Shown piece after piece: positions 22,564-44,642 of a stretch of 64,000 nucleotides of DNA. Each line of letters starts with the position of its first letter. Positions within the stretch are counted from its first letter, which is position 1. The notes under the pieces are model-generated. The model was not told where the DNA came from. It made no database searches and worked only from the letters and a program-made list of their open reading frames with translations. Location of the stretch: IMG/VR virus record IMGVR_UViG_3300042451_000960; one strand, given 5' to 3'. The stretch is from a virus (lineage: Duplodnaviria > Caudoviricetes). Position numbers and translations under genes: made by a program.

Positions 22564-23466
22564 TTAGATTTGAAGATTAGGTTGATTTTTTTGAATTAAT
22601 TTTGTAGCGAATGTTGAAATTTCTTGTCTTGCTATATCATAGGCCCTATCATAAAACTCCTTTTTCTTATCTATTGGTTTTATTTTATCAGCAAATTCAG
22701 GTACCCTATTAATATAATCCTCTGTTATATAAACCCCATCTAATACAAATTGTTGTACATTGTATCCTAATTTTATTGCTATCTTTCCGGCTTCCATCCC
22801 ATATGTATCTTCAGGCCCATATCCCCCAAATGATTCCGGAATATCTACTAATTCCCAAAATGATTTAGAATATAAAGTATGCATTCCACATCCAAATTTA
22901 AGTGTTGGAATTTGCTTTGCACTTATAAAATTAATTTTTTGATTGTATGTATTTTCAATAACTTCTTTTGAATCTATTGCATATCCAAATGGTTTATCTA
23001 AATATTCAGAATGTGTTAAGTAGTCCCAACTAGTATCCCACCATTTTGGTAAAGATGGAGATAATAAATAAATACCATCTAATTTGTAAGATACATCCAA
23101 TTGGTATCGTAACATATGTTCGTGAAACAGAATATCAGTATCACAAAATATAAATTGGTCATAATCCAATTTATAACTTTCTCTCTTTTGTTGTGTAGTT
23201 CCCCAACAAGATGTATCTAATATAATTTCATTTATATTTTTTAATCCATTAAAAAGAACACCAAATCTGGCTACAAAATATGATTGTTTGTATTCGCTAT
23301 TATCCCAATCTGTTAATTTTGGATTTAGGTTTAGTGTGGCTTTAATTGTAACATCATCATCGTTATTAAGATATTTAAAGGCTTTATGCATTTGAATCAT
23401 AAGTCTTTCAAACATTTCCATTTCGGATGGCATTACATGGATACAAATTAGGGTTCTTTTTTTCAT
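22564..23466 (-). CDS. GT-A-fold glycosyltransferase (putative)
   Basis: FIFCDTD DxD motif; FGGYGPED galactosyltransferase-C-like motif. Confidence 0.65.
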   Translation of the reverse strand: MKKRTLICIHVMPSEMEMFERLMIQMHKAFKYLNNDDDVTIKATLNLNPKLTDWDNSEYKQSYFVARFGVLFNGLKNINEIILDTSCWGTTQQKRESYKLDYDQFIFCDTDILFHEHMLRYQLDVSYKLDGIYLLSPSLPKWWDTSWDYLTHSEYLDKPFGYAIDSKEVIENTYNQKINFISAKQIPTLKFGCGMHTLYSKSFWELVDIPESFGGYGPEDTYGMEAGKIAIKLGYNVQQFVLDGVYITEDYINRVPEFADKIKPIDKKKEFYDRAYDIARQEISTFATKLIQKNQPNLQI

Positions 23467-24311
23467 AATGAATTTATATAATCTTTTAATTTATCGGTTG
23501 GTTTCCAATTTAATCTCTCCAAAGCATCGTTATTTTCTCTACAAGTTTCTCTATAATTACCTTTTTGGTTAGGCATATAAACTTTATCAACGCCAAACTT
23601 TTTAACAAACATATCAGCAACCTCATTAAGTGAATAGTTAAAACCAGTTCCCAACTCCCATGCATCTTCATGTGTTTCAGTTCCAAATCCTATTTTAATT
23701 AATCCATCAACAATATCATCAATATGAGTGAAATCTCTACGTTGTTTACCGTCACCAACAATAGTTATTGCTTTTTGTGTTATACATTGACCTCTCCACT
23801 TACCAATTACAGCTGCCCACTTACCATCAGTAATTTCGTATGGACCATACACATTATAAAATCTTGCAATCTCAATGTTAGTTCCAAATACTTTACGATA
23901 CATCTTACATACATCCTCACCTAACTTTTTATACATTGCGTAAGGTGATTGAAATGGGTCATGCCATTGTGAAGATGAACCACTATATACTACTTTTACA
24001 TTCCACTTTCTAGCCCAATCACATACAGCTTCAGTACCACTTACGTTTACTCTAAAGAAATCCGATGGAGTTTCAAATGATGGTTGTATTCTACTTAATG
24101 CTGCTAAGTGAAAGCATAAATCAACTTCATCGCCTTTGATAAAATCAATTTGCTCTACATTCATAGGAAGGTATCTTACTCCTTCAATTTGATTATCAAC
24201 CACTCCAACAGAATAATCATCTATTACAATTACTTTGTGCCCTTCTTCTTTTAACCTTTTTACTAAATTAGTTCCAACAAAACCAACTCCTCCTGTTACA
24301 ATTATATTCAT
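23463..24311 (-). CDS. NAD-dependent epimerase/dehydratase (extended SDR)
   Basis: TGGVGFVG, YAMYK (YxxxK), RFYNVYGP, RDFTHIDD. Confidence 0.92.
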   Translation of the reverse strand: MNIIVTGGVGFVGTNLVKRLKEEGHKVIVIDDYSVGVVDNQIEGVRYLPMNVEQIDFIKGDEVDLCFHLAALSRIQPSFETPSDFFRVNVSGTEAVCDWARKWNVKVVYSGSSSQWHDPFQSPYAMYKKLGEDVCKMYRKVFGTNIEIARFYNVYGPYEITDGKWAAVIGKWRGQCITQKAITIVGDGKQRRDFTHIDDIVDGLIKIGFGTETHEDAWELGTGFNYSLNEVADMFVKKFGVDKVYMPNQKGNYRETCRENNDALERLNWKPTDKLKDYINSL

Positions 24312-24312
24312 A

Positions 24313-25539
24313 TTAAAATACGTTTTTGAAAAATGGTGGGACCATATCTTTTGTCCTTAAATTAAGTATATGTATTTGGAATATATCCCATTCAAAACTA
24401 CCAATTGAATCCGTTTGTTGAATTATAAATGGTATGTTTTTTATAAACTGCCCATAGTGTTCATTTTTTAATTTAGAGCCATCAAACAATATTTGTACAT
24501 CACCTCTCATCAAATCTCCTATGTTATGAACCTTTTCTGATATTTTGAACATTGATTGATTTTCTTCGTTTGCTATATAAGCAGAAAAATCACAATCAAC
24601 GTAAATATGGTCACACCAAGGTTCTAAAACACCTAACAAATAAGGTGTACAATTATGAACTACAAATGAGGTATCGTATCTGTTTGGTACAATTGGCATC
24701 ATAAGTTCATCATGTAAAACATCAGTATGCCATTTTCTCCACCATTCTCTAAATTTGTTTTGACGAAGTTTTGTATATTCTTCAGAATCTTTTGGTTTAT
24801 ACCATTTTGTTCCATCTGGTAAATCAATTACCTTTTCTATTTCAATGCCATCTTTGAAACGTGAACCTCTACAAGTCATATGATATACAAAAGCATCTCT
24901 ACTTTGTATTAACTCATATTGCTGTAAATGAAATCTATTGAATATATCAGAATCTTCCAACTCCATTGGTGCGAATAAAAGGTCATGTCCACCAATACAA
25001 ACAAAATCTTCTTTATATAACATCCAAGGTGCAAAGATACCTTTTGTTGTTTTATCTTCCATCACATATTCGGTTTCATAAACGAACTTTTGGAATGCAC
25101 CATTATCAAATGATTCCGGCTCCATACCAAAATCCATTACATACTTTTCAGGACCAGGTGGATGTAATGGTGGTTCAATACGAGTTGCTGAAACTACGCT
25201 CATTGGTTTTAAATGTTTTAGCATATTCCCAACATAGTTTTGAGTTACAATCATATCCGAATGTAATATAGTTACTACCGGAGTTTCGGCTAATCTAATA
25301 CCAATATCATAAAGTACAGTATGTCCTACTCTATTATCAGAACCATTCCTATATGTTTTAATGTATGGTTTATTTAGGTTGTTTACCCATTCCCAAGTTC
25401 CATCATTAGAAGCATCATCTAATATTACTATGTTATGAGTATCCCCATAACAATCTTCAATACTATTAACTGCTTGCTTTAAATATTTTAAATTATTTCG
25501 GCAAGGTATAATAAATGTTATACGTTGATATTGTGCCAT
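24313..25539 (-). CDS. Glycosyltransferase family 2
   Basis: FIIPCRN, ILDDASNDGT, LHSDM, EDSD. Confidence 0.88.
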   Translation of the reverse strand: MAQYQRITFIIPCRNNLKYLKQAVNSIEDCYGDTHNIVILDDASNDGTWEWVNNLNKPYIKTYRNGSDNRVGHTVLYDIGIRLAETPVVTILHSDMIVTQNYVGNMLKHLKPMSVVSATRIEPPLHPPGPEKYVMDFGMEPESFDNGAFQKFVYETEYVMEDKTTKGIFAPWMLYKEDFVCIGGHDLLFAPMELEDSDIFNRFHLQQYELIQSRDAFVYHMTCRGSRFKDGIEIEKVIDLPDGTKWYKPKDSEEYTKLRQNKFREWWRKWHTDVLHDELMMPIVPNRYDTSFVVHNCTPYLLGVLEPWCDHIYVDCDFSAYIANEENQSMFKISEKVHNIGDLMRGDVQILFDGSKLKNEHYGQFIKNIPFIIQQTDSIGSFEWDIFQIHILNLRTKDMVPPFFKNVF

Positions 25540-26915
25540 TATTTGTTATAATTTTCTAAGTAATATTTTAAATCCTCAGGTGTTCCCAATCCCCACATTT
25601 TTTCAATGTTAAATGTTTTTACTTTCTTACCATCTTCAATTGCTTCATTAAATGTTGGACAAGTATAAAATTCGTTGTTAGTTCTGATGTTCTTATCAAT
25701 CATTTGTTCCGCATATTTAACATAGTCAGAACCTTTAGCCCAATAATAAACACCAACAGTTGCTATATCTGAAATTGGATTCTTCTCCGCAACTTCTGTT
25801 ACATATCCATAGTCATCTACTTTAGCGAATGACCATTTTGGATGTGTTGCTTTAAAAGTAACAATACCACCATCAACTTTTTGTTCAATCATCTTATACA
25901 TAAACTCATTTGAATCCCACTCTACAAATTGGTCAGAGTTTGCCATAACCAATGGAGCATCGTTATCAATATATTCTTTTGCTAATAGGGTTGTACAAGC
26001 AGCTCCCTCAGTCAAACCATCAACTTCTACAATCTTACAATTAGGAGTGATTAAGTTTAGGAGAGTATCTAAATTATACTTTTCTCTATGTTCTTTTTGT
26101 ACTACATAAATGTATGTAGCTTCTATATTTAAGTTATCCACTACAACCTGAATCATTGGTTTACCTTCCACATCAATTAGTGGTTTTGGAAATGTATAAC
26201 CTGCCTGTTGAAATCTACTTCCTGCTCCTGCCATTGGAATTAATACATTCATCTTACCACCTTGCCATTTTGGTGTACTCATACTTTTCTTTTCGTTTAA
26301 TTTGTTTGTTATTTTTTCCAATGTCAAATCATGCGGGTTATCTACTCTTAATACACTTGCTCTACTTCTACTTGCTGCCAATAACCCATGTGGAGAATCT
26401 TCTACAATTAGGGTTTCTTCCGGCAATACACCCATCATACTCATAGCCTTCCAATACATTTCAGGATGCGGTTTAGAGTTCTTTACATCCTCATTGGAGA
26501 GGATTAAGTCCATATACTCAATAAGACCTATCTTTGAAAGCATTACCAATACCGAGCGCCTAATTGAGTTTGAGCAACATGCGAGCTGATACCCCCTTTC
26601 CCTCAACTCATTAAATAGATAAACCAATATATGATTTGTTTGCAATTGTGATATTGCCTGAATTGTTAGGTGTTGTTTTCTAAACCAAATATTGTCATAA
26701 AACTCAGGATGTAGTCCTTTATTTTTTGTAAGTAGTTCTAATTTTTGGGTTGTCTTTAATCCATCATAAATTGAAAGATGCTCAGCTTCGGTAATAACAT
26801 ATTCATTACCTGTTACGATTTCAGTTTCTCTAAGAGCCTGATTAAGCGTATCGTAATGTATTTGTTTTGCTTCAACCAATACACCATCCAAATCAAATAT
26901 TATTAATTTTGTCAT
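25539..26915 (-). CDS. HAD phosphatase fused to a nucleotidyltransferase (BcbE-like/NTP-transferase)
   Basis: N-terminal FDLDGVL...KPHP...VEDS; C-terminal IPMAGAGSRF...PKPLI...GLGTPEDL. Confidence 0.88.
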   Translation of the reverse strand: MTKLIIFDLDGVLVEAKQIHYDTLNQALRETEIVTGNEYVITEAEHLSIYDGLKTTQKLELLTKNKGLHPEFYDNIWFRKQHLTIQAISQLQTNHILVYLFNELRERGYQLACCSNSIRRSVLVMLSKIGLIEYMDLILSNEDVKNSKPHPEMYWKAMSMMGVLPEETLIVEDSPHGLLAASRSRASVLRVDNPHDLTLEKITNKLNEKKSMSTPKWQGGKMNVLIPMAGAGSRFQQAGYTFPKPLIDVEGKPMIQVVVDNLNIEATYIYVVQKEHREKYNLDTLLNLITPNCKIVEVDGLTEGAACTTLLAKEYIDNDAPLVMANSDQFVEWDSNEFMYKMIEQKVDGGIVTFKATHPKWSFAKVDDYGYVTEVAEKNPISDIATVGVYYWAKGSDYVKYAEQMIDKNIRTNNEFYTCPTFNEAIEDGKKVKTFNIEKMWGLGTPEDLKYYLENYNK

Positions 26916-27670
26916 GGAAGTGCTTTTAAATGTTTACCAACTTTAGTAACTCCTTTATGTTGAACTGCTATTGTGGCACATTCATTACCATAAATTATTG
27001 CACTTTGAATATCATTTGTTCTACAATATTGAATTACCAATGCAGAAATAAATGAATCTCCGGCGCCACTATTATCTCTAACTTCAACTTCTGCCACATT
27101 GTATTCTTTATCCATATACTTACATCCCTTTCCACTCATAGTTACAATTAATTTATCGTAGAATTCTTTGAAGTATTGTCCAGCTGCGATATTGTTTTCA
27201 TACTCATGCTCATTTATTTTAATGAACCTAGCTCCTAACATTTTTTCATTAATAATCTTTTTAGTATCAATGAATACAATATCATGCTTTGAACAAATAT
27301 ACTCAATATCATCATACTCTAAAAATCCTTTATTGTAATCTGATATAATAACTGCGCAATAATTTTCAAAAGGAATATATTCTAGTCCTTCTACTCTTTT
27401 TGATTTGGCCGAATCAGAATCTACTCTAATGATTTGATGGTTTGTTTTTTCCTCAACATATCTTGTTTTAGTAATAACTTCCGAATTCGTAACTAAATCA
27501 ACTTCAACACCCAATGATTCTATATTTTCATATACGTTAGCTGCCATACCACCTGTTTCAGTCTTTCTTTGTGGAATGAATACAGGTACAGGAGCTTCAG
27601 GGCAAAGTCTATTTGCTTTACCATAAATGAATACATCTTTACAACTATCTCCTATAACTAATATTTTCAT
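26912..27670 (-). CDS. PfkB-family sugar kinase (HldE/RfaE kinase-domain-like)
   Basis: LVIGD...RLCPEAPVPV, GGMAANV, ISDYNKG, DNSGAGDSF. Confidence 0.88.
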   Translation of the reverse strand: MKILVIGDSCKDVFIYGKANRLCPEAPVPVFIPQRKTETGGMAANVYENIESLGVEVDLVTNSEVITKTRYVEEKTNHQIIRVDSDSAKSKRVEGLEYIPFENYCAVIISDYNKGFLEYDDIEYICSKHDIVFIDTKKIINEKMLGARFIKINEHEYENNIAAGQYFKEFYDKLIVTMSGKGCKYMDKEYNVAEVEVRDNSGAGDSFISALVIQYCRTNDIQSAIIYGNECATIAVQHKGVTKVGKHLKALP

Positions 27671-27671
27671 A

Positions 27672-28076
27672 CTACCAACTAATTTCCCAATCTTTAAATT
27701 CTGCTGCTAAGCAATCAATCTTATAATCTTTTCTACCACCCATTACTTCTTGAATTTTGTTTTTAGCAACATTACGGATTCCATTTAATCCATGTGTTAA
27801 TTCTAAATTATTACCATCTTTAATTCCCTTACGATAATTTGATTCGTTATGCCAAATATGTAAGTTCATTTGTGATAAAACTATAATCGCTCTGATTGTT
27901 TCAGCTGTAATTGGTTCTTTACTTTCATCCAAATACAATTGAATATCATGCACAATTGCTTTTATTTCTTCCGCGTATTCTTCTTTATGTTCGGTAATGA
28001 ATACTTCTTTTAATTGAACGATACTTAAACGGTCAACTAATTCACTTAATGTAGGTAAATACTTTCTTTCTGTCAT
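27672..28076 (-). CDS. Helical hypothetical protein within the glycan cluster
   Basis: LSELVDRLSIVQLK...NLHIWHNES; loosely DUF4254/DUF6165-like. Confidence 0.6.
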   Translation of the reverse strand: MTERKYLPTLSELVDRLSIVQLKEVFITEHKEEYAEEIKAIVHDIQLYLDESKEPITAETIRAIIVLSQMNLHIWHNESNYRKGIKDGNNLELTHGLNGIRNVAKNKIQEVMGGRKDYKIDCLAAEFKDWEISW

Positions 28077-28077
28077 A

Positions 28078-29013
28078 TTATAAATTTGTAAAATTTTGAT
28101 TATTTTTCTTAACTACCAATTTGTAAGCCTGTATCAATTGTTTGATTCCATAATCCAAATCATAAATTGGTTTCCATCCTAACGCTTCTAATTTCTCATT
28201 TGATACGATATAGTTTCTTTTATCAAAATCTTCTTTGAAATCATCTTGCTTAATTACTAATGATGGGATATGTGATTTAATTTTTTCTGCTAATTCTAAT
28301 TTAGATAAGTTAGCGGTTGATAATCCAACATTAAATGCTTGCCCCTTACACTTCTCATAATTTTCAATAACAAATTGGAATGTACGAGCTATGTCCTGAA
28401 CGTGTATGTAGTTTCTTTTAAAGTGTCCTTCAAATAACACTAAGTAACCATCTACCACACTCTTATATGTAAAGTCATTTACTAAAAGGTCAGTTCTCAT
28501 ACGAGGTGATACACCAAACACAGTTGCCAATCTCAACGATACACCATTTCCTTTTGCTAACATTGCGTTTTCAGCATCACACTTAGTTGTTGCATATAAT
28601 GATAATGGTTTGAATGGCGATTCTTCAGTAATGATTGAATCCGATGAACCATATTGTGAATTGGTATTTGGTAAGATTAACTTTTGGTCATCTCTTAATA
28701 CTTCTAATACATCTGCTATCTGTTGATAGTTCACAGCTACCGTTAATTCTGGATTAGCTTTACATGCCGGCATACCTACAATTGCTGCTAATGGAATAAT
28801 AACATCGTTCAATGATACTAATTCTTGCAAAAGTTTTTTATCTCTAACATCCCCCAATTCAAAATGGAATTTAGGATTTCCAAATAAATGTAATAGTGAT
28901 AATTGACCATACATCAAATTATCCAACACAGTAACAGTGTAACCTGCTTCTAATAAATGTTTAGTAAGGGTTGAACCTAAATAACCCCCACCACCTGTAA
29001 TTAATACTTTCAT
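28078..29013 (-). CDS. NAD-dependent epimerase/dehydratase
   Basis: TGGGGYLG, LAAIVG, YATTK, LRLATVFG. Confidence 0.92.
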   Translation of the reverse strand: MKVLITGGGGYLGSTLTKHLLEAGYTVTVLDNLMYGQLSLLHLFGNPKFHFELGDVRDKKLLQELVSLNDVIIPLAAIVGMPACKANPELTVAVNYQQIADVLEVLRDDQKLILPNTNSQYGSSDSIITEESPFKPLSLYATTKCDAENAMLAKGNGVSLRLATVFGVSPRMRTDLLVNDFTYKSVVDGYLVLFEGHFKRNYIHVQDIARTFQFVIENYEKCKGQAFNVGLSTANLSKLELAEKIKSHIPSLVIKQDDFKEDFDKRNYIVSNEKLEALGWKPIYDLDYGIKQLIQAYKLVVKKNNQNFTNL

Positions 29014-29981
29014 AATCTTTGTTTTATATCGTTATATACTTTTATCATCCCATCTCTCAGAGATGTTTGTGCTTCCCAATCTAATTCTTCTTTTGCTTTA
29101 GATACATCACACCACTGTCCCCATATTACTGTTTTCTTATCAGTATCCCATTCTATTTCAATATCCTTTCCACTTATTTCAACAGCCGTATTTGCTATAT
29201 CTTCTACCGTACATCTTTCACCTTTACCAACATTGTATGGACCTACTAATTGCTTAGTATCCATTGCTTCAATCATCTTTTCAATACAATCCAAAGCATC
29301 ATCAATGTAACAATAAGAACGAGTTTCTTTACCAGTACCCCATACTCTAAATGGTACTTCAGGATATTTGATTGCTCTATGTGAGAATACAGGAATTACT
29401 GAACCAGTTTCCAATCCAAAGTCTTGATTTGGTCCGTAGATACCAATGAATCTTGCTATTGCTGCTTTTAACCAATCGTTTTCAACTATTGCCGATTCAA
29501 TTGATTTTTCACCAATTAGTTTTGCCCAACCATATGTTAGTTCGGGATTAGCTGGATATGCATCTGATTCTTTAATCATTGGAGAGTCTGCAATCATTTG
29601 TAACTCCTTTGGATAAATGTGTGCCGATGATGCGTAAAAATATGTATCTATTTTGTAATGCAATATTGCTTTCAAAACATTTGCATCCATCTCCATATTT
29701 GTTTTCATAACACCATATGGATTATCCAAATAAACACCAATACCACCAACTTTAGATGCCAAATGTATAACCACATCTTTATCTTCAAAGAATTGCTGCA
29801 TTGTTTCGTAATCTGTCAAATCACATACAACCAATTTTAATCGTTTAATGTTTTCAACGAAATCAACTTTACCTCTTTCCAAATTATCAATAGCAGTAAC
29901 TTCATGTCCTCTTTCAACTAATCTCTTAACTAAATGAGAACCTATAAATCCCGCTCCGCCCGTAACTAATATTTTTTTCAT
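29010..29981 (-). CDS. NAD-dependent epimerase (GDP-mannose 3,5-epimerase-like)
   Basis: TGGAGFIG, ASSAHIY, YGWAK, RSYCYIDD. Confidence 0.88.
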   Translation of the reverse strand: MKKILVTGGAGFIGSHLVKRLVERGHEVTAIDNLERGKVDFVENIKRLKLVVCDLTDYETMQQFFEDKDVVIHLASKVGGIGVYLDNPYGVMKTNMEMDANVLKAILHYKIDTYFYASSAHIYPKELQMIADSPMIKESDAYPANPELTYGWAKLIGEKSIESAIVENDWLKAAIARFIGIYGPNQDFGLETGSVIPVFSHRAIKYPEVPFRVWGTGKETRSYCYIDDALDCIEKMIEAMDTKQLVGPYNVGKGERCTVEDIANTAVEISGKDIEIEWDTDKKTVIWGQWCDVSKAKEELDWEAQTSLRDGMIKVYNDIKQRL

Positions 29982-30694
29982 AATACGAATGAATCAATTT
30001 TATTTCTTAATGTTTCATATTTTTTATTAAAATATGTTGAATCAACAACCTCACCATTAACATAAGAATTATTTACTATTTTTTCAAAATTATTTGCTAA
30101 TAAAAATTCGTCAAATTCAATTGGTTTGGGGTTATTTTCATAATAATTAAAAGTATTTACTTCACAATTTAAATAAACTATTTTATCTAAATATTTTCCA
30201 GCACTTTTGATTATATCTAAATCTTTTCCTTGAGTATCTATTTTAACAATGTCAATATGGTCAAATCTTTCCCAATCTATTCTATCAAGTAATTCAAAAA
30301 ATGGATAAACATCAACATCACTTAATTCTCTAACCGAATCATCTAATTGATTTGTTGGTTTCAAAAGAGATGAAACACCAACATCATTAGACATATGATA
30401 AAATGGTTTTGTTGTTTTTTCGGCAACGTTATCAAGTGCAAGATTTAATAATAAAAAGTTATCATTTGGAAACGAAACACCAATACCATATTGATTAGTA
30501 TATAAACCATTCCTTATAATAGAATCTACAGCGTATTTATTAGCTTCAATTCCAATAACAAAAGTATTTTTATTTTTATTTAACCAATATGATGAATTTG
30601 GTGCACAATAGCTCAATCCTATATCAAATCTGATGCTTTCTACATCCGATGGAATATCGAATTTTCCGTTTTCATTTAAAAATCTTTCTAACAT
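29978..30694 (-). CDS. FkbM-family methyltransferase
   Basis: DIGLS...IEAN, KIDTQGKD; start MLERF is TAATG-coupled to fcl. Confidence 0.75.
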   Translation of the reverse strand: MLERFLNENGKFDIPSDVESIRFDIGLSYCAPNSSYWLNKNKNTFVIGIEANKYAVDSIIRNGLYTNQYGIGVSFPNDNFLLLNLALDNVAEKTTKPFYHMSNDVGVSSLLKPTNQLDDSVRELSDVDVYPFFELLDRIDWERFDHIDIVKIDTQGKDLDIIKSAGKYLDKIVYLNCEVNTFNYYENNPKPIEFDEFLLANNFEKIVNNSYVNGEVVDSTYFNKKYETLRNKIDSFVL

Positions 30695-31647: not shown

Positions 31648-31658
31648 AATTTTTGTTT

Positions 31659-33300: not shown

Positions 33301-33307
33301 TCATTTA

Positions 33308-34009: not shown

Positions 34010-34014
34010 TGTTT

Positions 34015-35504: not shown

Positions 35505-35505
35505 G

Positions 35506-36890: not shown

Positions 36891-36891
36891 A

Positions 36892-38079
36892 TTATCTATG
36901 GTATAAATGTTCTCTTGCCATTAAAAAAATGTGCCATAATTGTTGATGTTTTTTAATAAAAGCACCGGTTATGTTTAGTGTATCACCACCCCAAGGAGTT
37001 TTTAAATAAGCCATCAATTCTTCTCCGGGCAAAATACCAGCTATCCATTGGGTTGGTGTTTCTTCTTTAGTTATAAACACAAATTGTTTATTCTTTGTAT
37101 CAATAAGTAAATTTTTACTATAATCAAAAAATTCAAGTATTACCATACCAGGACCTTCTATTCTATAACCCGAATCATATAATTTATTAAGTTCATTTAT
37201 AATAGAATCTTCGCTTGGGAAATCACTAACAGTAGTTATTTCTTTTCTACAATTTGCTATAACATCATTCCATTTAACAATATTGGTATCATTATTTTCA
37301 TTTGATGTTAATGATATTTCTTCATTGTAAAATGGTATTTGAGTTTTATATTTTGTAAGTGGAAGTAAGTCATTCAAACTAACAGCGTAATCATTTATGT
37401 AGTCATTGTATTGCTTACAAAAATAAACATAACTAGCAAATGGTACACTCATTTTTGGTTGAAGATAATTTTGGTATCTAATAAATTTATCTATATGAAA
37501 TTTTGTACCTTTTTCAATAATTGCATTTGGTTCGGTACTATTACCATAATAACCAGCTAAACTAAATTGGAATAACCATAAATCAATTTTAGGAAACATT
37601 TGTTTCATTCGAGGAAGAACTTCATCATCTAAATAAGCATCATTCTGATTACAAATCACATCATCACCAATTCTATAAACCAATGCGCTATCATGTCCTT
37701 CAGGAAATGCTGTTATTGTAAACCCTTCTTCTATTTCAGTTTCAATATAATGGTCAATGTATGCAAAACTGTATCCAAGCTTTTTACATTCATCCATTAC
37801 ATTTGGATTAGTTCTACGAGGAAATATAATTGTAATTTCGTTATCAGTTTTTGTTTTAATGTATTTTAATGTAGGCCAATGTAAATGGTCTGGGTGTTCA
37901 TGTGATACCGAAATATATTTTACTTTTGAATAATCAATTTTACTATCATCAGTATCTTTAAGTAAAGACCAACTATTATTGAATATTCTACCAAAATACC
38001 AAGGGTCAACTAATGTAATTGAATTGTCTGTTTCAATTGAAAACGATGCATGATTTAAAAACGTAACTTTATAATTCAT
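36892..38079 (-). CDS. MBL-fold metallo-hydrolase (UlaG/CMP-Neu5Ac-hydroxylase-like)
   Basis: NHAS, DPWYFG, SHEHPDH, HDSALV, NQND, PFAS. Confidence 0.8.
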   Translation of the reverse strand: MNYKVTFLNHASFSIETDNSITLVDPWYFGRIFNNSWSLLKDTDDSKIDYSKVKYISVSHEHPDHLHWPTLKYIKTKTDNEITIIFPRRTNPNVMDECKKLGYSFAYIDHYIETEIEEGFTITAFPEGHDSALVYRIGDDVICNQNDAYLDDEVLPRMKQMFPKIDLWLFQFSLAGYYGNSTEPNAIIEKGTKFHIDKFIRYQNYLQPKMSVPFASYVYFCKQYNDYINDYAVSLNDLLPLTKYKTQIPFYNEEISLTSNENNDTNIVKWNDVIANCRKEITTVSDFPSEDSIINELNKLYDSGYRIEGPGMVILEFFDYSKNLLIDTKNKQFVFITKEETPTQWIAGILPGEELMAYLKTPWGGDTLNITGAFIKKHQQLWHIFLMAREHLYHR

Positions 38080-39076
38080 CTTTTAATATTTTATAAATTT
38101 TTTCCGATGCTTTCCCATCTCCATATGGACAAGGTTTACAAATATACGGATTTTTTTCTAATTCACAAAATAAATCGGATAGTTTTTCTGGGGTTTCGCA
38201 AACAAATAAATGCCCAGAACCTTTCCCCTCTGGTCTTTCTGTTACTTTTCTACAAACTATTACTTTTTTGTTAAAGAAAGCCCCTTCCTCTTGCAATCCA
38301 CCACTATCAGTTATTACTAACTTAGAATCCTTTAGAATGTTAATAGTTTCATCGTGCGTAAGGGGTTCAACAACATTTATGTTTGTCAATAACCCCTTAT
38401 GCTTTTGAACGTTTGGATTTGGATGCATTGGTAGTATAAATTTATACTGTGGATAATCAATTGCTAACTGATTAATCTGCTTAAACCATTCATCCATCCA
38501 ATAAAAGTTTTCTCTACGATGCATTGTTACTAAGATAGTATCACCATAACTACCTTTGTCATACTTTAGGAGATTATCCAATACAGTATTTCCAACTATA
38601 TGAATATCTCCTTTTACTCTTTCCGCATCTAAGTTTTCAGCGGAAAGTTGTGTTGGCGCAAAGTTTACATCTGCCAAGCGTGCTATCATTTGTCTGTAAC
38701 CTTCCTCTGGATAAGGATTTTCTAAATCGTAACTACGGAGTCCCGCTTCTAAATAGTAAACCTTTATTCCTCTATGAAACGCTGCTAACGCACAGGCAAA
38801 AGCGGAGGCTGTATCACCTTGCACCAACACACCGCTGAACTTGTAATTTGGAAAATATTCCATACAAGCAATCATAATAGAATCTAATCTAGTATGACGA
38901 AAACTTTCTTCTATATTTACTCTAAAATCAACTCTTATATCTGCTAGTAGGTCTTCATGCTGACCTGTGAATAGTAGTTTGTATTCACTTCTATCCATTA
39001 TATCAATCAAAGGCTTTACCTTTAACCACTCAGGTCTAGTTCCAAAACATACTAATATTGGGTGTTTCTTATTCAT
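38069..39076 (-). CDS. wecB: UDP-N-acetylglucosamine 2-epimerase (non-hydrolysing)
   Basis: FGTRPE, TGQH, VQGDT, EAGLRS, PEE, TDSGGLQEE, ERPE. Confidence 0.93.
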   Translation of the reverse strand: MNKKHPILVCFGTRPEWLKVKPLIDIMDRSEYKLLFTGQHEDLLADIRVDFRVNIEESFRHTRLDSIMIACMEYFPNYKFSGVLVQGDTASAFACALAAFHRGIKVYYLEAGLRSYDLENPYPEEGYRQMIARLADVNFAPTQLSAENLDAERVKGDIHIVGNTVLDNLLKYDKGSYGDTILVTMHRRENFYWMDEWFKQINQLAIDYPQYKFILPMHPNPNVQKHKGLLTNINVVEPLTHDETINILKDSKLVITDSGGLQEEGAFFNKKVIVCRKVTERPEGKGSGHLFVCETPEKLSDLFCELEKNPYICKPCPYGDGKASEKIYKILKDEL

Positions 39077-39836
39077 TTACTAATTTCCAACCTTTTTGTC
39101 TTTGTTTATGAAAATAATCATTCATTAATTGTTTGAATGGTACACCTTCTACACTTTTTTGGTTTGATTCCCAAAGTGAGTTAGCATCACCACCATAAGT
39201 TGCTCCTTTTGTACTTCCCCACATTTCTTTATCAGAACGAGGATGTGGTGGTACAAATGTTTTTATTCCAGCATATTTTTGTAACATATAAGAGAAGTGC
39301 ATATCCTCACCGCATGTATTATATTTTGGGTCAGGTTGCTCCATCCACATATAAGATAACCATTCTTTTTTAAAGAACCAACTATGCCCAACTAAATCAA
39401 CTTGAATAGTCTTATCATTATTACCAGCTTCCGGCCATCCAAATCGTAAATAGTGTTCGTAATAAGATGAATGTTCTGCTGATAGTGGATTCAAATAAAG
39501 TAGTCCCACCGTCCCCAACAAACCTTCATTTTCTTTCATTGTGTTCATACAATTCTCTAGCCACTTTGAACCAGGTATTGTATCATCATCAAATATACAT
39601 ACATAAGGATTACGAGCCATAAATGCGAAAGCAAATCGTGCCCACACACCAAAGTTGTAATTACAATATGCAACGGGAACTTCTGTACCAATATCGTAAT
39701 TGATTAATTCATTATCATCAGGGTTATTATACCACACCAATATCTCATCCGGCTGAACAGTTTGTTTTTTAAGTGCTTCCATTTGTTCATTAAGATTAGC
39801 ACCTCTTTTGTAACCATTTAATATAACTGTTATCAT
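39069..39836 (-). CDS. GT-A/GT2-like glycosyltransferase
   Basis: IFDDD DxD motif, GEDMHFS. Confidence 0.75.
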   Translation of the reverse strand: MITVILNGYKRGANLNEQMEALKKQTVQPDEILVWYNNPDDNELINYDIGTEVPVAYCNYNFGVWARFAFAFMARNPYVCIFDDDTIPGSKWLENCMNTMKENEGLLGTVGLLYLNPLSAEHSSYYEHYLRFGWPEAGNNDKTIQVDLVGHSWFFKKEWLSYMWMEQPDPKYNTCGEDMHFSYMLQKYAGIKTFVPPHPRSDKEMWGSTKGATYGGDANSLWESNQKSVEGVPFKQLMNDYFHKQRQKGWKLVNE

Positions 39837-40834
39837 AATTCTCTTTTTATTCGTTGTAACCAAACTTCCTTTGAAAAACAAGCTTCATAATTTGATTTTG
39901 CTATTTCTGAACATTGATTATAAAACTCTTTATCATTTCTTAATTGTATTGCCAATTCTCTTGCAGTTTCCAAATCATTCACTGCTACCGATAAAGATGG
40001 ATGACAAAGTAATTGAGTATCTACATCTTGATTTCCAATACAAGGTATTCCAAAATATGCACAATTAAGAGCAAATGTTCCAGCTGCTACCGTTGGCATC
40101 ATATGAACTCCGTATTTGAATGTTGATAATACAGCCATCCATTCGTTCCACATCATTCGAGGTAAGTGAGTTAGATTATCCACACTATCCTCACCAATTC
40201 TCATAGCATGTGATGTTTGTGCCCAAATAGGAACTTCGAAATTACCAGCTATCATATAACTCTCAAACCCACCATACCATCTTGCGAAGTTACCACCTAT
40301 AATTGCTTTATCTTCTTTTGTTGGTACAATATCTTTAATTAAAGTATCAATCATTAATGTACCAATAGGTCTTACCTTTTTATTAGGAAACAATCCTTTA
40401 TAGTAATATACATCAGAATCATTATGTGTGAAAATTGAATCACAACTTGCTAAAAAGTTATAGAAATAAACTTGGTCTGATATTTCGTAATCGTTATACC
40501 ACCAATGAGGTCCTTCTTGAATATAGTGAACCGAACCATTACCTTTTGCTTTAATTCTTTCAACTATATCTTGCCTCAATAATTCAGAAACTGGATTAGT
40601 ACCTCTTACCAATGTACTGCCCTCCGAACTTAAAAATGTTTTACCTTTTGGAAATATAATAAAGACATGGTCATATCCTGTCAAATTTTTATCAGAACCA
40701 AATAGATGAAGATTATAATGGTCAGCATCTAAAGCATGCATCCAAGCAAACTCCGTTCTCATATTTGGATGATTAGCTGGAACTTTTCCAACAAATCCCA
40801 TTTCAGTTAGGAAAGCTATCTTAGATTGTATCAT
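39833..40834 (-). CDS. Putative GT-B glycosyltransferase
   Basis: AGTFALNCAYFGIPCIG C-terminal GT-B-like motif. Confidence 0.6.
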   Translation of the reverse strand: MIQSKIAFLTEMGFVGKVPANHPNMRTEFAWMHALDADHYNLHLFGSDKNLTGYDHVFIIFPKGKTFLSSEGSTLVRGTNPVSELLRQDIVERIKAKGNGSVHYIQEGPHWWYNDYEISDQVYFYNFLASCDSIFTHNDSDVYYYKGLFPNKKVRPIGTLMIDTLIKDIVPTKEDKAIIGGNFARWYGGFESYMIAGNFEVPIWAQTSHAMRIGEDSVDNLTHLPRMMWNEWMAVLSTFKYGVHMMPTVAAGTFALNCAYFGIPCIGNQDVDTQLLCHPSLSVAVNDLETARELAIQLRNDKEFYNQCSEIAKSNYEACFSKEVWLQRIKREL

Positions 40835-41450
40835 ACAAAGCGTTTTGTTTTTCTTGTCTTTCAATTTGCTTATGATGATATAAACAATAAATTTCTTCTT
40901 GTGGTAAAACCGATAAAGTATTGTATCCTATAATTCGCTCATGCACTTTACCGCTCCATTCGATTTCAGAAGTTCTTCTATAAAGGCGAGTTTGGTAATC
41001 AGGAAAATTTATCCATCCGTTTTCATTAACTTGCCATTTCCATTTTTGGATATGTTGTTTTGTTAATCCTTCAACAGTATTAATACGAGGAACAAAGAAA
41101 AGGTCAACATCTTTATTATATTCTAAAAAGCTGTGTATATTTTCGACTAAGTATTCGGATGGTATTTCATCCGCATCAATTTGAAATATAAAAATACCAT
41201 TTGCATGATTCTTTAAATTATTCTTAAAAGAAGCAAAATCTTTATTTAAAGCAAACTCTATTACTCTAATATTTTTATGCAATTGAGCTATTATTTTTAA
41301 ATAATCTTTTATTTGATTTGTAGATGAATCAGAATCATACTGAACTAATATTTCATCTTCTTCTTTTAATCTAGGATGTAGGAAATTAATAAGATTTGTA
41401 ATTTCATTTATTTCATTACAAACCGTAATTGCATATGTAACATTTATCAT
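40821..41450 (-). CDS. Glycosyltransferase family 2
   Basis: YAITVCNE, QIDADE, PDYQTRLY, VHE. Confidence 0.85.
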   Translation of the reverse strand: MINVTYAITVCNEINEITNLINFLHPRLKEEDEILVQYDSDSSTNQIKDYLKIIAQLHKNIRVIEFALNKDFASFKNNLKNHANGIFIFQIDADEIPSEYLVENIHSFLEYNKDVDLFFVPRINTVEGLTKQHIQKWKWQVNENGWINFPDYQTRLYRRTSEIEWSGKVHERIIGYNTLSVLPQEEIYCLYHHKQIERQEKQNALYDTI

Positions 41451-41456
41451 AACTTA

Positions 41457-41939
41457 TTATAACTTCTTTAAAATTTTAATATATTGCTTTATATAATCTT
41501 TTTTTATTATCACTTCTGATATTTGTTTAACACCAGTAATAGTGTATGTCCTATAAAGTTCTTTATTTGTTGTTCCTATTCTTTTATTTTTTACATGAGA
41601 TTCGTAAATATTAGAACCGGCCCTATCACCTATTTGTAACAACTCTTCAAGCATTTTAGATTGAGAAATAGATTCTTCGGTAAGATTTGTTAAAAATAAT
41701 TTTTTAAGCCATTTAAAAAAATCTTCAGGCTTTATTTCAGTTATTTTTAAACCTACGAGTTTTTTATCGTAAATTCCAAAAACAAAAACGATAGCAGTTT
41801 CGGGTCCAGATAAAGATTTTCTAGTCCCATCAACATACTCATACGAAGTAATCTTATAAATGTTTCTTGGTCTTACTAAACTTTTAGAAACTTTTTTTTC
41901 GGATTCTATTATTTTATCATATTGTTGTACAAATGGCAT
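41457..41939 (-). CDS. Hypothetical protein
   Basis: 160-aa ORF, packed. Confidence 0.65.
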   Translation of the reverse strand: MPFVQQYDKIIESEKKVSKSLVRPRNIYKITSYEYVDGTRKSLSGPETAIVFVFGIYDKKLVGLKITEIKPEDFFKWLKKLFLTNLTEESISQSKMLEELLQIGDRAGSNIYESHVKNKRIGTTNKELYRTYTITGVKQISEVIIKKDYIKQYIKILKKL

Positions 41940-41941
41940 TG

Positions 41942-43249
41942 TTAAACTTTATTAAGTTTTGGAATTTGCATTTTAGATGTATTTAATTTTGGAATATTAA
42001 ATGGTACTAATTTTGGCTGTGGTTTTATGTACGAATCAACAATATTAGTAAATCTTTCATGCATTTTTTCTAATGTGAAATTTTTTAAAGTATTTTCTCG
42101 TAGCCCTTCTGATTTTTCTAAATAAGAATTATAATTTTTATAAACATCATATATCTTATTAGCTGCATTTGAATAATTTGCACTAAACCATTGTGCTTCC
42201 TTTAGAATAAATTGGTCAGCAGCGGATTCATCAATTTGAGTTAGTGTACCTTCCAAAAACACAGTGTGTTCAGCTGGTAGGAAATCCATATGCCCACTCC
42301 AACCACTAGCTATAATTGGTTTACCTGTCAAAGTAAACTCAGCCATTGGTCTACCATACCCTTCACCTTTTGTGAATGAAATCATTGCTTTTATTTTTGG
42401 ATGATGATAAAGATTACTCATATCTGTTTCTTCCATGTCACCATGTAACAAATAAATTGGTGGACATTTTTGACCAAATGATTTTACAACATCTTCTATT
42501 TTTTGTCTAATGTTTTCTCTATCAATAACACTAAATCCAGCGTGTGATGTTTTTATTAAAAGAGCAGGTTTTTTATCCTTCGGAGTGTGTTGAAATACAG
42601 TTGCGAATGTTTTTAAAGTCATTCCAATATCTTTTCTATCTTGTCCCAAATTACCCTTTAACCAATGACCAACAACTAAGAAACAAAAATCTTCTTTTAT
42701 ATTTTCTAATATGTCAGCTTTATCACCAGGTCTTTCAAATCCTTTATTGAATATTTCAGTATCAACACCTTCGAACAAAACTTCAATTGGTTTTTGTAAT
42801 TTTATTTCACCAACAATTTCTCCAGTTTGTTGATTTTTTTGTTGATATACTGTACCTGCTAAGTTTTGCATTGTAAATTTAGATGGTACTATAATCAAAT
42901 CCATTTTATTAGACCCATCAATAAAATCTTTTGGACAAATTGTAGTTTCTACACCAGCAGTTACACCAATGTTATAATGTCCTTTTGGTTCAAATTCATT
43001 TGCTACTGAAACTTGCATAAACACATCCGGTTTATCACCAATCTCACCAATTACTCTCTCTAACATCCAGCGGCCAAAATCATCATCATCACTTACTTGG
43101 TTTTGTGGTGTATTACCCCAACGAAGTGGAATAATCTTTATATCGTACTTATCCATCTTACGAAGTGATTTCATCAAATCTCTACAATGGTCACCATACC
43201 CACTTCTAGTAAAAATAGGTCCCTGAAATACTAATGTTGGTTTATTCAT
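41942..43249 (-). CDS. GT-B (GT4-like) glycosyltransferase
   Basis: TRSGYGDHCR, KGEGYGRPMAE, SGWSGHMDF. Confidence 0.88.
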   Translation of the reverse strand: MNKPTLVFQGPIFTRSGYGDHCRDLMKSLRKMDKYDIKIIPLRWGNTPQNQVSDDDDFGRWMLERVIGEIGDKPDVFMQVSVANEFEPKGHYNIGVTAGVETTICPKDFIDGSNKMDLIIVPSKFTMQNLAGTVYQQKNQQTGEIVGEIKLQKPIEVLFEGVDTEIFNKGFERPGDKADILENIKEDFCFLVVGHWLKGNLGQDRKDIGMTLKTFATVFQHTPKDKKPALLIKTSHAGFSVIDRENIRQKIEDVVKSFGQKCPPIYLLHGDMEETDMSNLYHHPKIKAMISFTKGEGYGRPMAEFTLTGKPIIASGWSGHMDFLPAEHTVFLEGTLTQIDESAADQFILKEAQWFSANYSNAANKIYDVYKNYNSYLEKSEGLRENTLKNFTLEKMHERFTNIVDSYIKPQPKLVPFNIPKLNTSKMQIPKLNKV

Positions 43250-43259
43250 ATACTATAAC

Positions 43260-44642
43260 TTATTTAACTTTAAATACCTCAAATCTTTGGCGAGGTTTCC
43301 AATTTTCAAATGTTGATTCAATTCCATCAATTAATGTTTGGCACATATTTGTATGAGATAATCCTGCTTCGTTTATAAAATGTTCTCTACCTTTAAGAGC
43401 GTTTGCTTTTCTTTCTTCTTTTGGTGTGTTATACATTTTCTCAATTGCTTCAGCAACTTCGGTTACATCAACTCTATCATCCCAAATATAAGGCGTTGGT
43501 ACTGAACCTGCTAATGCCATTGCTCTACTCCATACCGGAATAGCCCAAGGACCAGGTTCTGCTTTGGCTTCCCATTTTCTCCACTCATGTAATGAACCAA
43601 TTTTAATATAATCGTCAGCAACTAATACATTGCCTTCTACTTTAAATCCACATTGGTCTTGCAATCCACCAGTTACATTTACGATGATTGGTGTACCAGC
43701 CATTACCGATTCTGCAGTTGCTAATCCAAATCCTTCGTTGTTAGCGATGTTGATTGTACAATCTACTATATTATAGATAAGATTCAATTCTTGTTGTGAC
43801 CTTCTTTTTTCTGAAAACTTAATATTAACATCAGATGCTACAGCTTCGATAACAGCATAAAGGTCAGTTCCATTTTCATCCACCGGTTGTGTATGCATTA
43901 ATAGTAAGCACTTATCTGCTTTTTCTTTTCCAATCTTGTCACAAAATAATTTATAAGCATATATAACATCAGCTGGTTGCTTTCTTCTAATATTACGATT
44001 TGACCAATAAAGAACAAAATCGTATTCTTTATCACCTAATACATCTTTTTTGAATTCTGCCGAAACTTCTTCCGGTTTGTATATATCAGTATTAATACCA
44101 TGTGGTACGTATCCTACTTGCCAATCAGCTTTTGGTTTCCAAGTTGGTTTATCAATTCTTGCACTAATTCTTTTAATGATACCATATGTTTGGCGAGATA
44201 TACAACCAATCCAATCACAACTTTCATAGAAGTTACGATTATACATTGGGTCTGGTAAATCATCCCAAATTGCGTAAAATAATAGTGGTACGTTTTGTCT
44301 AATTTCGTGCTCAATATCATATAACCAAGTCCAATAACGAGGGTCAGTAAAGTGTAGGATAGCATCTGGTCTTTCTGCGTTAATTAGTTGCCTAATCAAA
44401 TCCGCATTACCATAACCATTCCAAGGTAAAATTTTTACATTAGCATCTGCAATTCCATAATTTTTTTGGATGTCTTCACTTACATCTAAAACTTTACCTG
44501 CTTCTGGGTGATTAATTGCCGCACCTACTTGAAACCAATCGTATTTGTGAGCAGTTCCTAAAACCAATTCCTTAGACATTGTAGCGATACCACTCGCCAT
44601 TCTTAAATCATCTGAAAGTAACAATATTTTTTTCTTTGCCAT
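43260..44642 (-). CDS. GT-B (GT4-like) glycosyltransferase
   Basis: PHGINTD, NRNIRRKQ, NEGFGLATAESVMAGTPII. Confidence 0.9.
   Translation of the reverse strand: MAKKKILLLSDDLRMASGIATMSKELVLGTAHKYDWFQVGAAINHPEAGKVLDVSEDIQKNYGIADANVKILPWNGYGNADLIRQLINAERPDAILHFTDPRYWTWLYDIEHEIRQNVPLLFYAIWDDLPDPMYNRNFYESCDWIGCISRQTYGIIKRISARIDKPTWKPKADWQVGYVPHGINTDIYKPEEVSAEFKKDVLGDKEYDFVLYWSNRNIRRKQPADVIYAYKLFCDKIGKEKADKCLLLMHTQPVDENGTDLYAVIEAVASDVNIKFSEKRRSQQELNLIYNIVDCTINIANNEGFGLATAESVMAGTPIIVNVTGGLQDQCGFKVEGNVLVADDYIKIGSLHEWRKWEAKAEPGPWAIPVWSRAMALAGSVPTPYIWDDRVDVTEVAEAIEKMYNTPKEERKANALKGREHFINEAGLSHTNMCQTLIDGIESTFENWKPRQRFEVFKVK

Follow-up and report, generated by a model that had tools for sequence, protein, structure and literature searches.

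A variable gene island of freshwater tailed phages that probably builds glycans in the cytoplasm and may attach them to a collagen-like tail fibre

Giant viruses (Mimivirus and the Megavirinae in their fibrils, chloroviruses in their capsid; PMC9614988) carry their own nucleotide-sugar enzymes, many soluble glycosyltransferases (GTs) and sugar methyltransferases, in clusters that vary from clade to clade, and collagen-like virion proteins are involved: Mimivirus L230 glycosylates the collagen-like L71. The subject of this study is a run of genes, which I will call the island, at positions 22564-44642 of a 64,000-nucleotide stretch of DNA (the window) from a tailed phage of the Caudoviricetes, IMG/VR virus record IMGVR_UViG_3300042451_000960. 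The whole record, called G000 below, is 160,007 bp long, with a CheckV completeness of 79%. Like the giant-virus clusters, the island combines nucleotide-sugar enzymes with several soluble GTs and differs in content between relatives. Unlike them, it belongs to a tailed bacteriophage of about 200 kb and would act in a bacterial cytoplasm, the acceptor proposed for it is neither capsid fibrils nor a major capsid protein but a tail fibre that contains Gly-Ser/Thr repeats, and it contains no lysyl hydroxylase.

That viruses glycosylate their own particles with enzymes they encode is established for giant viruses and, among tailed phages, on a small scale for mycobacteriophages. In mycobacteriophages, according to work attributed to Freeman and colleagues in 2023, cytoplasmic GTs reportedly modify the phage's own structural proteins, and these systems are said to comprise two to four GT genes, to act on the C-termini of capsid and tail-tube subunits and, as far as that account extends, to make no sugars of their own. 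The island differs in its number of genes, about 25, in tailoring sugars de novo and in its association with a collagen-like fibre. Outside the viruses, the glycan of the Bacillus anthracis protein BclA includes a methylated N-acylated 4-amino-4,6-dideoxy sugar, made by an aminotransferase, an acyltransferase and a methyltransferase, with rhamnose/anthrose genes. The Gly-X-Thr collagen-like stalk of BclA, a protein of the exosporium, is reported to be densely O-glycosylated in the cytoplasm (Daubenspeck et al. 2004, cited in PMC9614988). The island shares these enzyme classes, a likeness by class, but BclA is a bacterial spore surface protein with proline-rich (GPT) repeats, and the repeats of the phage fibre are proline-poor. 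The serine-rich-repeat adhesins (GtfA/GtfB, Gtf3 and the GT-D enzyme dGT1; PDB 4pfx, 4phr, 5v4a) depend on paired GT-B enzymes and a GT-D fold, both predicted in the island, and their Ser-rich substrate, encoded at the same locus, is glycosylated stepwise in the cytoplasm, as would apply to the island as well. Here, however, the EX7E motif is retained in both GT-B enzymes, an accessory Sec system is absent and the candidate substrate is a collagen-like repeat of the triple-helix type; moreover, the likeness to GtfA/GtfB is one of working only, since neither GT-B profile matches a GtfA or GtfB chain in PDB at E<=1.

In the large T4-like cyanophages P-SSM2, S-SCSM1 and S-SCSM2R (PMC12801897), numerous GTs (GT2, GT11, GT1, GT25) are encoded along with NDP-sugar epimerases, and exporters are absent; these clusters, labelled "cell wall synthesis and modification" or lipopolysaccharide (LPS) clusters, have been read as modifiers of the host surface, with no fibre gene reported inside. 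The freshwater "moraphages", with predicted Bacteroidota hosts, have four core GTs (PMC12619734). Each ingredient therefore has a precedent, in mycobacteriophage virion glycosylation, giant-virus clusters, cyanophage GT clusters or moraphage core GTs, and a literature search found no paper on a tailed phage in which a glycan island of 20 kb, variable between strains, is built around a collagen-like Ser/Thr tail fibre poor in proline.

The island is probably a hypervariable, entirely cytoplasmic glycan-building system of an abundant freshwater tailed phage. As to its acceptor, I consider it fairly probable that the island O-glycosylates a tail fibre of the phage itself, collagen-like, rich in Ser/Thr and poor in proline, and does so in advance of virion assembly or in its course. 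That acceptor is favoured because the enzymes are predicted to be soluble and come without export machinery and because the island is genetically tied to a fibre gene packed with Ser and Thr.

The island consists of 25 open reading frames (ORFs), all on the minus strand, as are nearly all genes of G000, and abutting or overlapping by a few bases. Together with a 66-aa ORF at their head, they confirm the contiguous glycan run of about 22 kb seen in an initial annotation of the window, as well as its placement between virion-type genes and the replisome. Upstream, in order of transcription, lie a UvsX-like recombinase, an exonuclease, a DnaB-like helicase, ribonucleotide reductase, a family B DNA polymerase (PolB), a clamp loader and a PD-(D/E)XK nuclease (44928..45797, minus strand; PDDEXK_1 1.6e-21), the last of which is outside the glycan system and serves as a conserved marker of its upstream border. 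Downstream are a few small ORFs, a gene resembling polynucleotide kinase (PNK) or HAD proteins and the collagen-like fibre gene. The polymerase is 52% identical to its counterpart in Microcystis phage Mel-JY01 (PP395634), and the nuclease border is present both in that phage and in vB_FspM_immuto, a phage of Flavobacterium (NC_055915; immuto below). The initial annotation had named a host-phage chimera as one of the cases that would overturn it, but the island is not one, since the nuclease-to-GT border at 44.6 kb is spanned by more than 50 independent metagenome contigs and the distal border at 22.5 kb by more than 20. GC content and GC skew also run continuously through both borders.

A search with the nuclease found 247 relatives in IMG/VR, with 85-97% identity among the 80 that were kept. 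The contigs of many of them end inside the island. Four complete relatives (G001 to G004; 188-274 kb, 97-100% complete) have the island at the same site, after the nuclease, and these together with G000 make up the five records considered below.

The candidate acceptor in the window is a tail-fibre-type protein of 796 aa (18131..20521, minus strand), with matches to PHROG tail-fibre families down to 1.9e-33 and about 290 residues of Gly-X-Y repeats, in which the X and Y positions together are 64% Ser, 13% Thr and 3% Pro. In three of the four complete relatives (G001, G003 and G004) the slot after the gene for a 160-aa island protein is occupied by a collagen-repeat protein (Pfam Collagen E 2.5e-41, 1.9e-25 and 2.7e-22, respectively), and the same is true of at least 19 of the 23 close IMG/VR relatives with enough sequence. 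These in-island proteins range from 334 to 1095 aa, with X and Y positions that are 54-79% Ser plus Thr and, overall, 1-3% Pro. There is one such gene per locus, and all share an N-terminal motif with the window gene. Because of that shared motif and the single copy per locus, the gene at 18131-20521 is identified as the same gene as its in-island orthologues, displaced 2 kb downstream. Weak but consistent matches link its 30-residue N-terminus to the N-termini of proteins annotated in 35 phage records as tail fibre, tail spike, minor tail or tail collar, among them gp103 and gp104 of the immuto tail module, and the protein lacks a signal-peptide-like N-terminus. From the tail-type N-terminus and the absence of a signal-like start, the protein is predicted to be a cytoplasmic virion fibre protein, whose repeats would offer hundreds of hydroxyl groups. 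The C-terminal 467 residues have no match among PDB sequences; in the Atlas they resemble clusters from phages only, apart from a weak lead to C1q at 0.88.

The 160-aa protein itself (41457..41939 in the window) evolves quickly: it is 36-55% identical across relatives, as compared to 80-90% for its neighbours. In relatives its gene directly precedes that of the collagen-like fibre, and it may be a fibre-specific adaptor or chaperone. It has no Pfam, PHROG or PDB match, and its Atlas look-alikes are phage-only; a likeness to T4 gp2, drawn from one Atlas cluster that is 33% gp2-like with a template modelling (TM) score of about 0.5, was judged too weak and set aside.

The surroundings of the fibre gene differ among the relatives. 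Many have a subtilase of 521-532 aa (Peptidase_S8, E 1.6e-36) directly 3' of the in-island fibre gene, for example at L118:2516-4081 (G001), L017:15533-17131, L036:8737-10326 and L084:9168-10733; it is absent from the window, and it may process the fibre or help it to mature. In the window a 90-aa basic protein (20588-20860) is encoded just upstream of the fibre gene. Most relatives (L088-L113) carry, directly after the island and some 0.5-6 kb downstream of the PNK/HAD-like gene, one to four large fibre-like ORFs that are Ser-rich (11-17%), proline-poor and strongly divergent between strains, sharing only a middle segment with the window fibre. The island and this variable fibre region form one hypervariable zone.

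The second line of evidence concerns export. The initial annotation had seen no exporter or priming gene in the island and had advised a check of the rest of the genome. Both points hold up: in the 160-kb record and in the four relatives there is no match to the Wzx flippase (PF01943), to the priming transferases of the WbaP/PglC type (PF02397) or the WecA/MraY type (PF00953), to the Wzy_C polymerase/ligase (PF04932) or to the ABC-2 permease (PF01061), nor is there one to the PMT_2-type GT-C enzymes (PF13231). The searches do find these families where they are expected, with 9-14 of 14 control genomes positive over the whole set and 10 of 14 and 12 of 14 for the two priming families; no family search was made for Wzz or Wza. 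The matches to ABC_tran all fall under threshold, and the one in G000 lies within the clamp-loader gene. A hydropathy scan, which is independent of family, found no multi-pass membrane protein in the window island, nor any among the 136 ORFs of the five complete islands. All the island products are therefore predicted to be soluble. Elsewhere in the 160-kb record just two multi-pass membrane proteins were found, one of the TerC family (E 5.1e-49; G000:C1:92997-93647, just before the window) and one with DUF454 (E 9.9e-27; window 14403-14834), neither of a glycan exporter type.

The island contains ten GT candidates, eight of them firm; the initial count was about eight GTs (GT2, GT4-like, GT11, CgeB-like) plus a GT-D-like gene. 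At the head of the island lies a pair of GT-B paralogues, both part of the conserved backbone and both with the EX7E motif. The first, a GT-B/GT4 enzyme of 460 aa (43260..44642; Glycos_transf_1 1.3e-7, phrog_2170 4.2e-17), is 84-92% identical among relatives. Its best PDB match is the chlorovirus NY-2A protein B736L (3oy2, E 7.6e-10), a viral GT-B that binds GDP-mannose and whose acceptor is unknown (PMC9614988). Run against 185,579 species genomes, the profile of the 460-aa protein matches only three contigs, all binned with metagenome-assembled genomes (MAGs) and phage-like. The second (41942..43249), of 435 aa, is a full-length paralogue of the first (phrog_2170 2.3e-19) and is 42% identical to its counterpart in immuto and 40% to that in Mel-JY01.

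A model of the two proteins in complex supports the view that the conserved paralogues form a heterodimer. The model scored 0.86, while the best control scored 0.00; of 80 solved complexes 58 reach the mark used, as do 2 of 110 mismatched pairs, counts that carry over only roughly to this model, for which alignments of my own were used. Three runs share at least 97% of contacts, and the predicted local distance difference test score (pLDDT) of the partners is at least 87. In the modelled interface the C-terminal strand of the 460-aa protein lies against residues 262-272 of its 435-aa partner.

The remaining GT candidates follow in order of transcription. A GT2 of 209 aa (40821..41450; Glycos_transf_2 1.1e-9), also part of the backbone, is 45% identical to its counterpart in immuto and 40% to that in Mel-JY01. 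After it come a probable GT-B-like protein of 343 aa (39833..40864), whose one family match is weak (WsaF_C, E 0.1) but which is a backbone gene in all five islands, and a second GT2, of 270 aa (39069..39881; Glycos_transf_2 9.8e-8). A candidate GT-D enzyme of 260 aa (36108..36890; DUF1792-like) was recognised by its fold and its invariant residues: the sole significant PDB matches of its model are the GT-D structures 4phr, 4pfx and 5v4a (E 1e-5 to 1e-4, TM about 0.5), and R27, D30, G31 and E32 are invariant in six sequences, while the Pfam GT-D-like family PF22882 reaches only E 0.3. Next are a GT11 of the fucosyltransferase family (34015..34872; Glyco_transf_11 9.3e-23) and a CgeB-like GT-B (32374..33300; Glyco_trans_1_2 1.7e-5), the latter borderline at 25.2 bits against a cut-off of 25. 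Then, near the distal end, comes a backbone GT2 of 408 aa (24313..25539; Glycos_transf_2 5.3e-16), 42% identical to that of immuto. The terminal backbone gene (22564..23466) encodes a protein of 300 aa that has no Pfam, PHROG or PDB sequence match, but its model (pLDDT 79, predicted TM score 0.83) has 245 PDB structure matches at E<=0.001, the top ones all GT-A enzymes, and both aspartates of its DxD motif, D109 and D111, are invariant. Family profiles of the 300-aa, 260-aa and 160-aa proteins, when compared with PDB sequences, gave nothing usable. By analogy, the GT-D fold candidate, the CgeB-like gene and the B736L-related GT-B would represent enzyme types known from protein glycosylation.

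The variability of the cluster among relatives, which the initial annotation had proposed to examine, takes the form of mosaic cassettes set in a conserved backbone. The five complete islands span 18.5-26.5 kb, and clustering of their genes gives a common backbone in a common order: the 66-aa ORF, the 460-aa and 435-aa GT-B genes, the 160-aa protein, a variable slot, the 209-aa GT2, the 343-aa GT-B-like protein, the 270-aa GT2, a WecB epimerase, the GT-D candidate, a GNAT acyltransferase, a short DegT protein, the variable cassettes, the 408-aa GT2 (sometimes followed by a short-chain dehydrogenase/reductase, SDR) and the 300-aa GT-A. Two cassettes are gained or lost as blocks, a fucose-type one (GT11, FkbM, CgeB-like, FkbM, Fcl) and a heptose-type one (SDR, SDR, a 134-aa protein and PfkB, to which the HAD-nucleotidyltransferase may or may not be added). 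Elsewhere their place is taken by a full-length DegT, more SDRs, a hexapeptide acyltransferase, other methyltransferases or a RuBisCO-like protein. The fragments in IMG/VR show the same mosaic, with a steady backbone and shifting cassettes. The RuBisCO large-chain-like protein just mentioned (396 aa; PF00016, E 6.1e-33) is in the island of G001 (L089:1607-2797), where its gene adjoins that of a stand-alone sugar nucleotidyltransferase, and it may have been recruited to sugar chemistry.

Beyond these relatives the resemblance is confined to a core. By megablast the whole island matches none of 50,697 phage records. In immuto and Mel-JY01 the nuclease is followed by the same core order (GT-B, GT-B, small protein, GT2) at 37-58% identity, and immuto has in addition a short DegT, an SDR and a 408-aa GT2. 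Their islands are of 6.5-11 kb, as compared to 22 kb here, with neither a collagen-like gene nor a fucose or heptose cassette, and the DNA polymerase of immuto is of family A, whereas that of the window phage is of family B. The GT core is found also on two MAG-binned phage-like contigs. No literature on Mel-JY01 was found.

The non-GT enzymes of the initial inventory (four SDRs, three FkbM methyltransferases, DegT, GNAT, WecB, PfkB, the HAD-nucleotidyltransferase and the metallo-beta-lactamase (MBL) hydrolase) were all recovered with Pfam and NCBIfam. WecB, a non-hydrolysing UDP-N-acetylglucosamine 2-epimerase (38069..39076; PF02350 1.6e-67), scores above its cut-off (TIGR00236, 227 bits against 210). 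It is followed by the MBL-fold hydrolase of 395 aa (36892..38079; Lactamase_B_3 1.5e-9), which among the five islands is present only in that of G000, and, after the GT-D candidate, by the GNAT acyltransferase (35506..36123; Acetyltransf_1 5.2e-6).

Adjoining the GNAT gene is that of a DegT-family aminotransferase-like protein (34872..35504) of 210 aa, where about 370 aa is typical of the family. It matches DegT_DnrJ_EryC1 in two stretches (8.7e-23), and its matches to PseC- and LegC-like families are far under their cut-offs. It retains SFH-x-K-K where the lysine that binds pyridoxal phosphate is expected. The protein is 208-213 aa in relatives and 42% identical to a 215-aa immuto protein, and by sequence it appears to be a conserved "mini" form, not a pseudogene.

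The fucose-type cassette contributes, besides the GT11 and the CgeB-like enzyme, two FkbM methyltransferases (33308..34009, Methyltransf_21 2e-18; 31659..32387, 3e-25) and an SDR like GDP-L-fucose synthase (30694..31647; Fcl family), whose match to NF047922 (5.7e-84, 282 bits) is under the equivalog cut-off of 500. No Gmd was found in the five records, TIGR01472 giving only 27-bit, SDR-level matches in two relatives. A third FkbM methyltransferase (29978..30730, 2.4e-8) comes next. Then follows the heptose-type cassette, inherited as a block of five genes. It begins with an SDR nucleotide-sugar epimerase/reductase (29010..29981; Epimerase 6.6e-49) and a 4,6-dehydratase-like SDR (28078..29013; Epimerase 7.5e-33), whose best NCBIfam match, dTDP-glucose 4,6-dehydratase, is under cut-off. 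The third gene, the most conserved of the cassette (91-96% identical in relatives), encodes a 134-aa DUF4254/DUF6165-like protein (27672..28076), the Atlas feature matches of which are phage clusters and DUF6165/DUF4254; kinship with a cytidylyltransferase-like ORF of the relatives was rejected (BLASTP E 0.2). The fourth is a PfkB kinase resembling heptose-7-phosphate kinases (26912..27670), nearest to the HldE kinase domain, which matches TIGR02198 at E 2.6e-37 but at 129 bits against a cut-off of 345. The isomerase GmhA was not found in any of the five records (TIGR00441). The last is a fusion of a beta-phosphoglucomutase-like HAD with a sugar-1-phosphate nucleotidyltransferase (25539..26915; HAD_2 2.7e-29, NTP_transferase 5.7e-12, with matches to NCBIfam subfamilies). 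There are more than 8000 near-identical metagenome phage proteins, so many that the homologue search was saturated and is silent on cellular relatives. Near the end of the island, between the 408-aa GT2 and the GT-A gene, lies an SDR epimerase of 282 aa (23463..24311; Epimerase 2.5e-41), 40% identical to that of immuto and 60% to that of a MAG-binned phage contig.

Some of the relatives bear on the heptose assignment from outside their islands. G001 and G002 encode a protein heptosyltransferase of the TibC/Aah type (TIGR04414, 271 and 275 bits against a cut-off of 200; G001:C1:247898-248983 and G002:C1:228606-229676, or L116 and L115). Beside it are genes for a methyltransferase-domain protein, a cytidylyltransferase-like protein and a PfkB kinase 38-39% identical to the island PfkB. 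By sequence, the cytidylyltransferase-like and PfkB genes appear to be a split HldE next to a protein-specific heptosyltransferase, and the position of this PfkB, a paralogue of the island kinase, lends support to a heptose-kinase role for the latter.

With these assignments, the system might work as follows. Phage enzymes would turn host precursors into activated sugars. WecB would supply UDP-N-acetylmannosamine (UDP-ManNAc), and the Fcl-like SDR would yield a GDP-6-deoxyhexose of the fucose type, from a 4-keto intermediate that would come from the host, since the phage lacks Gmd. NDP-heptose would arise from the heptose-7-phosphate of the host by way of the PfkB kinase and the HAD-nucleotidyltransferase fusion; GmhA, which the phage also lacks, would likewise have to be provided by the host. 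The two neighbouring SDRs of the cassette would then modify the NDP-heptose, and may dehydrate and reduce it; such a modification has its parallel in the heptose pathways of the Campylobacter capsule. The short DegT and the GNAT would provide an N-acylated amino sugar. The GT-B heterodimer would initiate the glycan on Ser/Thr residues of the fibre, the GT2, GT-A, GT-D, GT11 and CgeB-like enzymes would lengthen it and the three FkbM enzymes would O-methylate it, while the swapping of cassettes would make the glycan differ from strain to strain.

A more ambitious claim, to which I would give somewhat less than an even chance, is that tailed lake phages assemble, on proline-poor collagen-like fibres, glycans as complex as those of giant viruses and different from strain to strain, begun by a heterodimeric GT-B that is unrelated in sequence to known protein glycosyltransferases. 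The glycans would in that case include methylated heptose, a fucose-type deoxyhexose, ManNAc and an N-acylated amino sugar, and a glycan coat, not protein alone, would be the surface under selection for host range, stability or escape from grazing. The glycan might, moreover, replace proline and hydroxyproline in stabilising the triple helix.

What the glycan is attached to has to be judged against several observations that weigh against the fibre. A glycan on the virions of this lineage is argued from the genes; the sugar-pathway assignments, except for WecB, depend on matches below cut-off; the model of the 260-aa GT-D candidate has a pLDDT of only 64, which is low confidence; and the score of the GT-B complex may have been inflated by likeness to solved GT-B pairs. 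The fibre gene of the window sits 2 kb downstream, outside the island, and no TibC-type gene (TIGR04414) was found in the 160 kb of G000. The fibre-in-island arrangement is confined to the lineage of the window phage, whereas immuto, Mel-JY01 and two more distant contigs have the GT core with no collagen-like gene inside. Soluble, peripheral GTs, finally, are at work in ordinary pathways for O-antigen and capsule too, where the glycans they make are lipid-linked, and the use of host exporters is therefore compatible with the lack of exporters in the phage.

This last point leads to an explanation that I regard as unlikely, though by no means negligible: that the soluble enzymes act on undecaprenyl-phosphate-linked intermediates of the host's O-antigen, capsule or O-glycosylation, which the host machinery then exports. 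The surface of the infected cell would be altered, with superinfection exclusion or avoidance of grazers as examples of the outcome. The gene content would suit such a function, since GT2, GT4, GT11, WecB, Fcl and heptose enzymes are standard in O-antigen and capsule loci, where conserved flanks with a variable middle are also typical. The deep conservation of the GT core in phages with no fibre gene in the island is likewise consistent with it, and cyanophage clusters with up to 13 GTs plus NDP-sugar epimerases have been read, untested, as modifiers of the host surface (PMC12801897). It leaves unexplained, however, the Ser/Thr-rich collagen-like fibre gene embedded in the islands of most relatives and the protein heptosyltransferase beside a kinase paralogue. 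The seroconverting phages that are known all work through membrane proteins (of the Gtr, Wzy or Oac kind), and with no priming transferase, flippase, polymerase, ligase, ABC-2, GT-C or multi-pass protein of a glycan-export type in the five records searched, remodelling of the host surface would fit no known seroconversion mechanism. Wzy polymerases are specific to their repeat unit, so that a glycan set by ten phage GTs would be a poor fit for export by the host.

It is less likely still that the island glycosylates some other cytoplasmic acceptor, be it another protein of phage or host, a small molecule or a lipid, the link to the fibre gene amounting to nothing but residence in the same hypervariable region. 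Capsid decoration proteins or host factors during takeover would be candidates. Hypervariable regions of phages often gather unrelated accessory genes, the fibre genes downstream of the island differ widely among relatives, and even the nearest solved GT, B736L, has no known acceptor. Mere residence in a variable region sits poorly, however, with a fibre orthologue that in at least 19 relatives takes one exact slot, directly behind the 160-aa gene, and with fibre repeats that resemble in composition known O-glycosylated collagen-like and serine-rich proteins (BclA and the serine-rich-repeat adhesins). DNA as the acceptor, with the GTs building an oligosaccharide on a modified base as protection against restriction, I consider very improbable. 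Phage GTs classically glucosylate hydroxymethylcytosine, Pyle and colleagues are said to have described diverse DNA glycans in 2024 (cited in PMC12619734), and the island does follow replication genes. Against this, the thymidylate-synthase-family gene is closest to ThyA of the E. coli type (244 bits, overall profile), and there is therefore no evident route to hydroxymethyl-pyrimidines. The DNA of immuto, which has the syntenic GT core, contains only dA, dC, dT and the 7-deazaguanine derivative fdPreQ1 by LC-UV-MS/MS (bioRxiv 10.1101/2023.04.13.536721), with no glycosylated nucleoside. Besides, no DNA glycosylation system yet described comes near a set of ten GTs and three O-methyltransferases with a fibre gene embedded in it. 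Of the original proposal of a cytoplasmic glycan on virion proteins or DNA, the virion part is thus favoured by the soluble products, the lack of exporters and the fibre gene in or near the island, and the DNA part is disfavoured by ThyA and by the mass spectrometry of immuto.

The host is likely to be one of the Bacteroidota. Among cultured phages the nearest one with the GT core is immuto, whose host is a Flavobacterium, and the GT-B family is found on contigs binned with Bacteroidetes and Flavobacteriaceae MAGs. Two related classes of promoter-like motif, TTCGTATATTTGTA and TTTTTCGTATCTTTAC, recur upstream of genes throughout the genome, and the first fits TAnnTTTG, the -7 element of Bacteroidota promoters. 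One copy is at 45813, directly upstream of the nuclease, and another at 38146, which falls within the 3' end of WecB and lies just upstream of the MBL gene. I tried to deduce from these motifs when the island is expressed, but neither class could be assigned to early or late genes. The 66-aa ORF (44651..44851, minus strand) heads all five complete islands (a small ORF holds the matching place in immuto) and has no Pfam or other family match; it could be a regulator of the island.

If glycosylation of the fibre is the correct explanation, then abundant freshwater tailed phages, to judge from the 247 relatives found with the nuclease and from an island protein with thousands of near-identical metagenome copies, carry a sugar-coating system of 20 kb that runs its own sugar-nucleotide chemistry. 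Because immuto and Mel-JY01, both in culture, have the conserved core, the idea lends itself to a direct test. It would account for the tendency of assemblies of these phages to break at the island, and it would offer a testable role for the unexplained "LPS/cell-wall" clusters of large aquatic phages. The receptor-binding organelle would be a glycoprotein, with consequences for host range, for the stability of the particles, for their adsorption to organic matter and for the way grazers recognise them.

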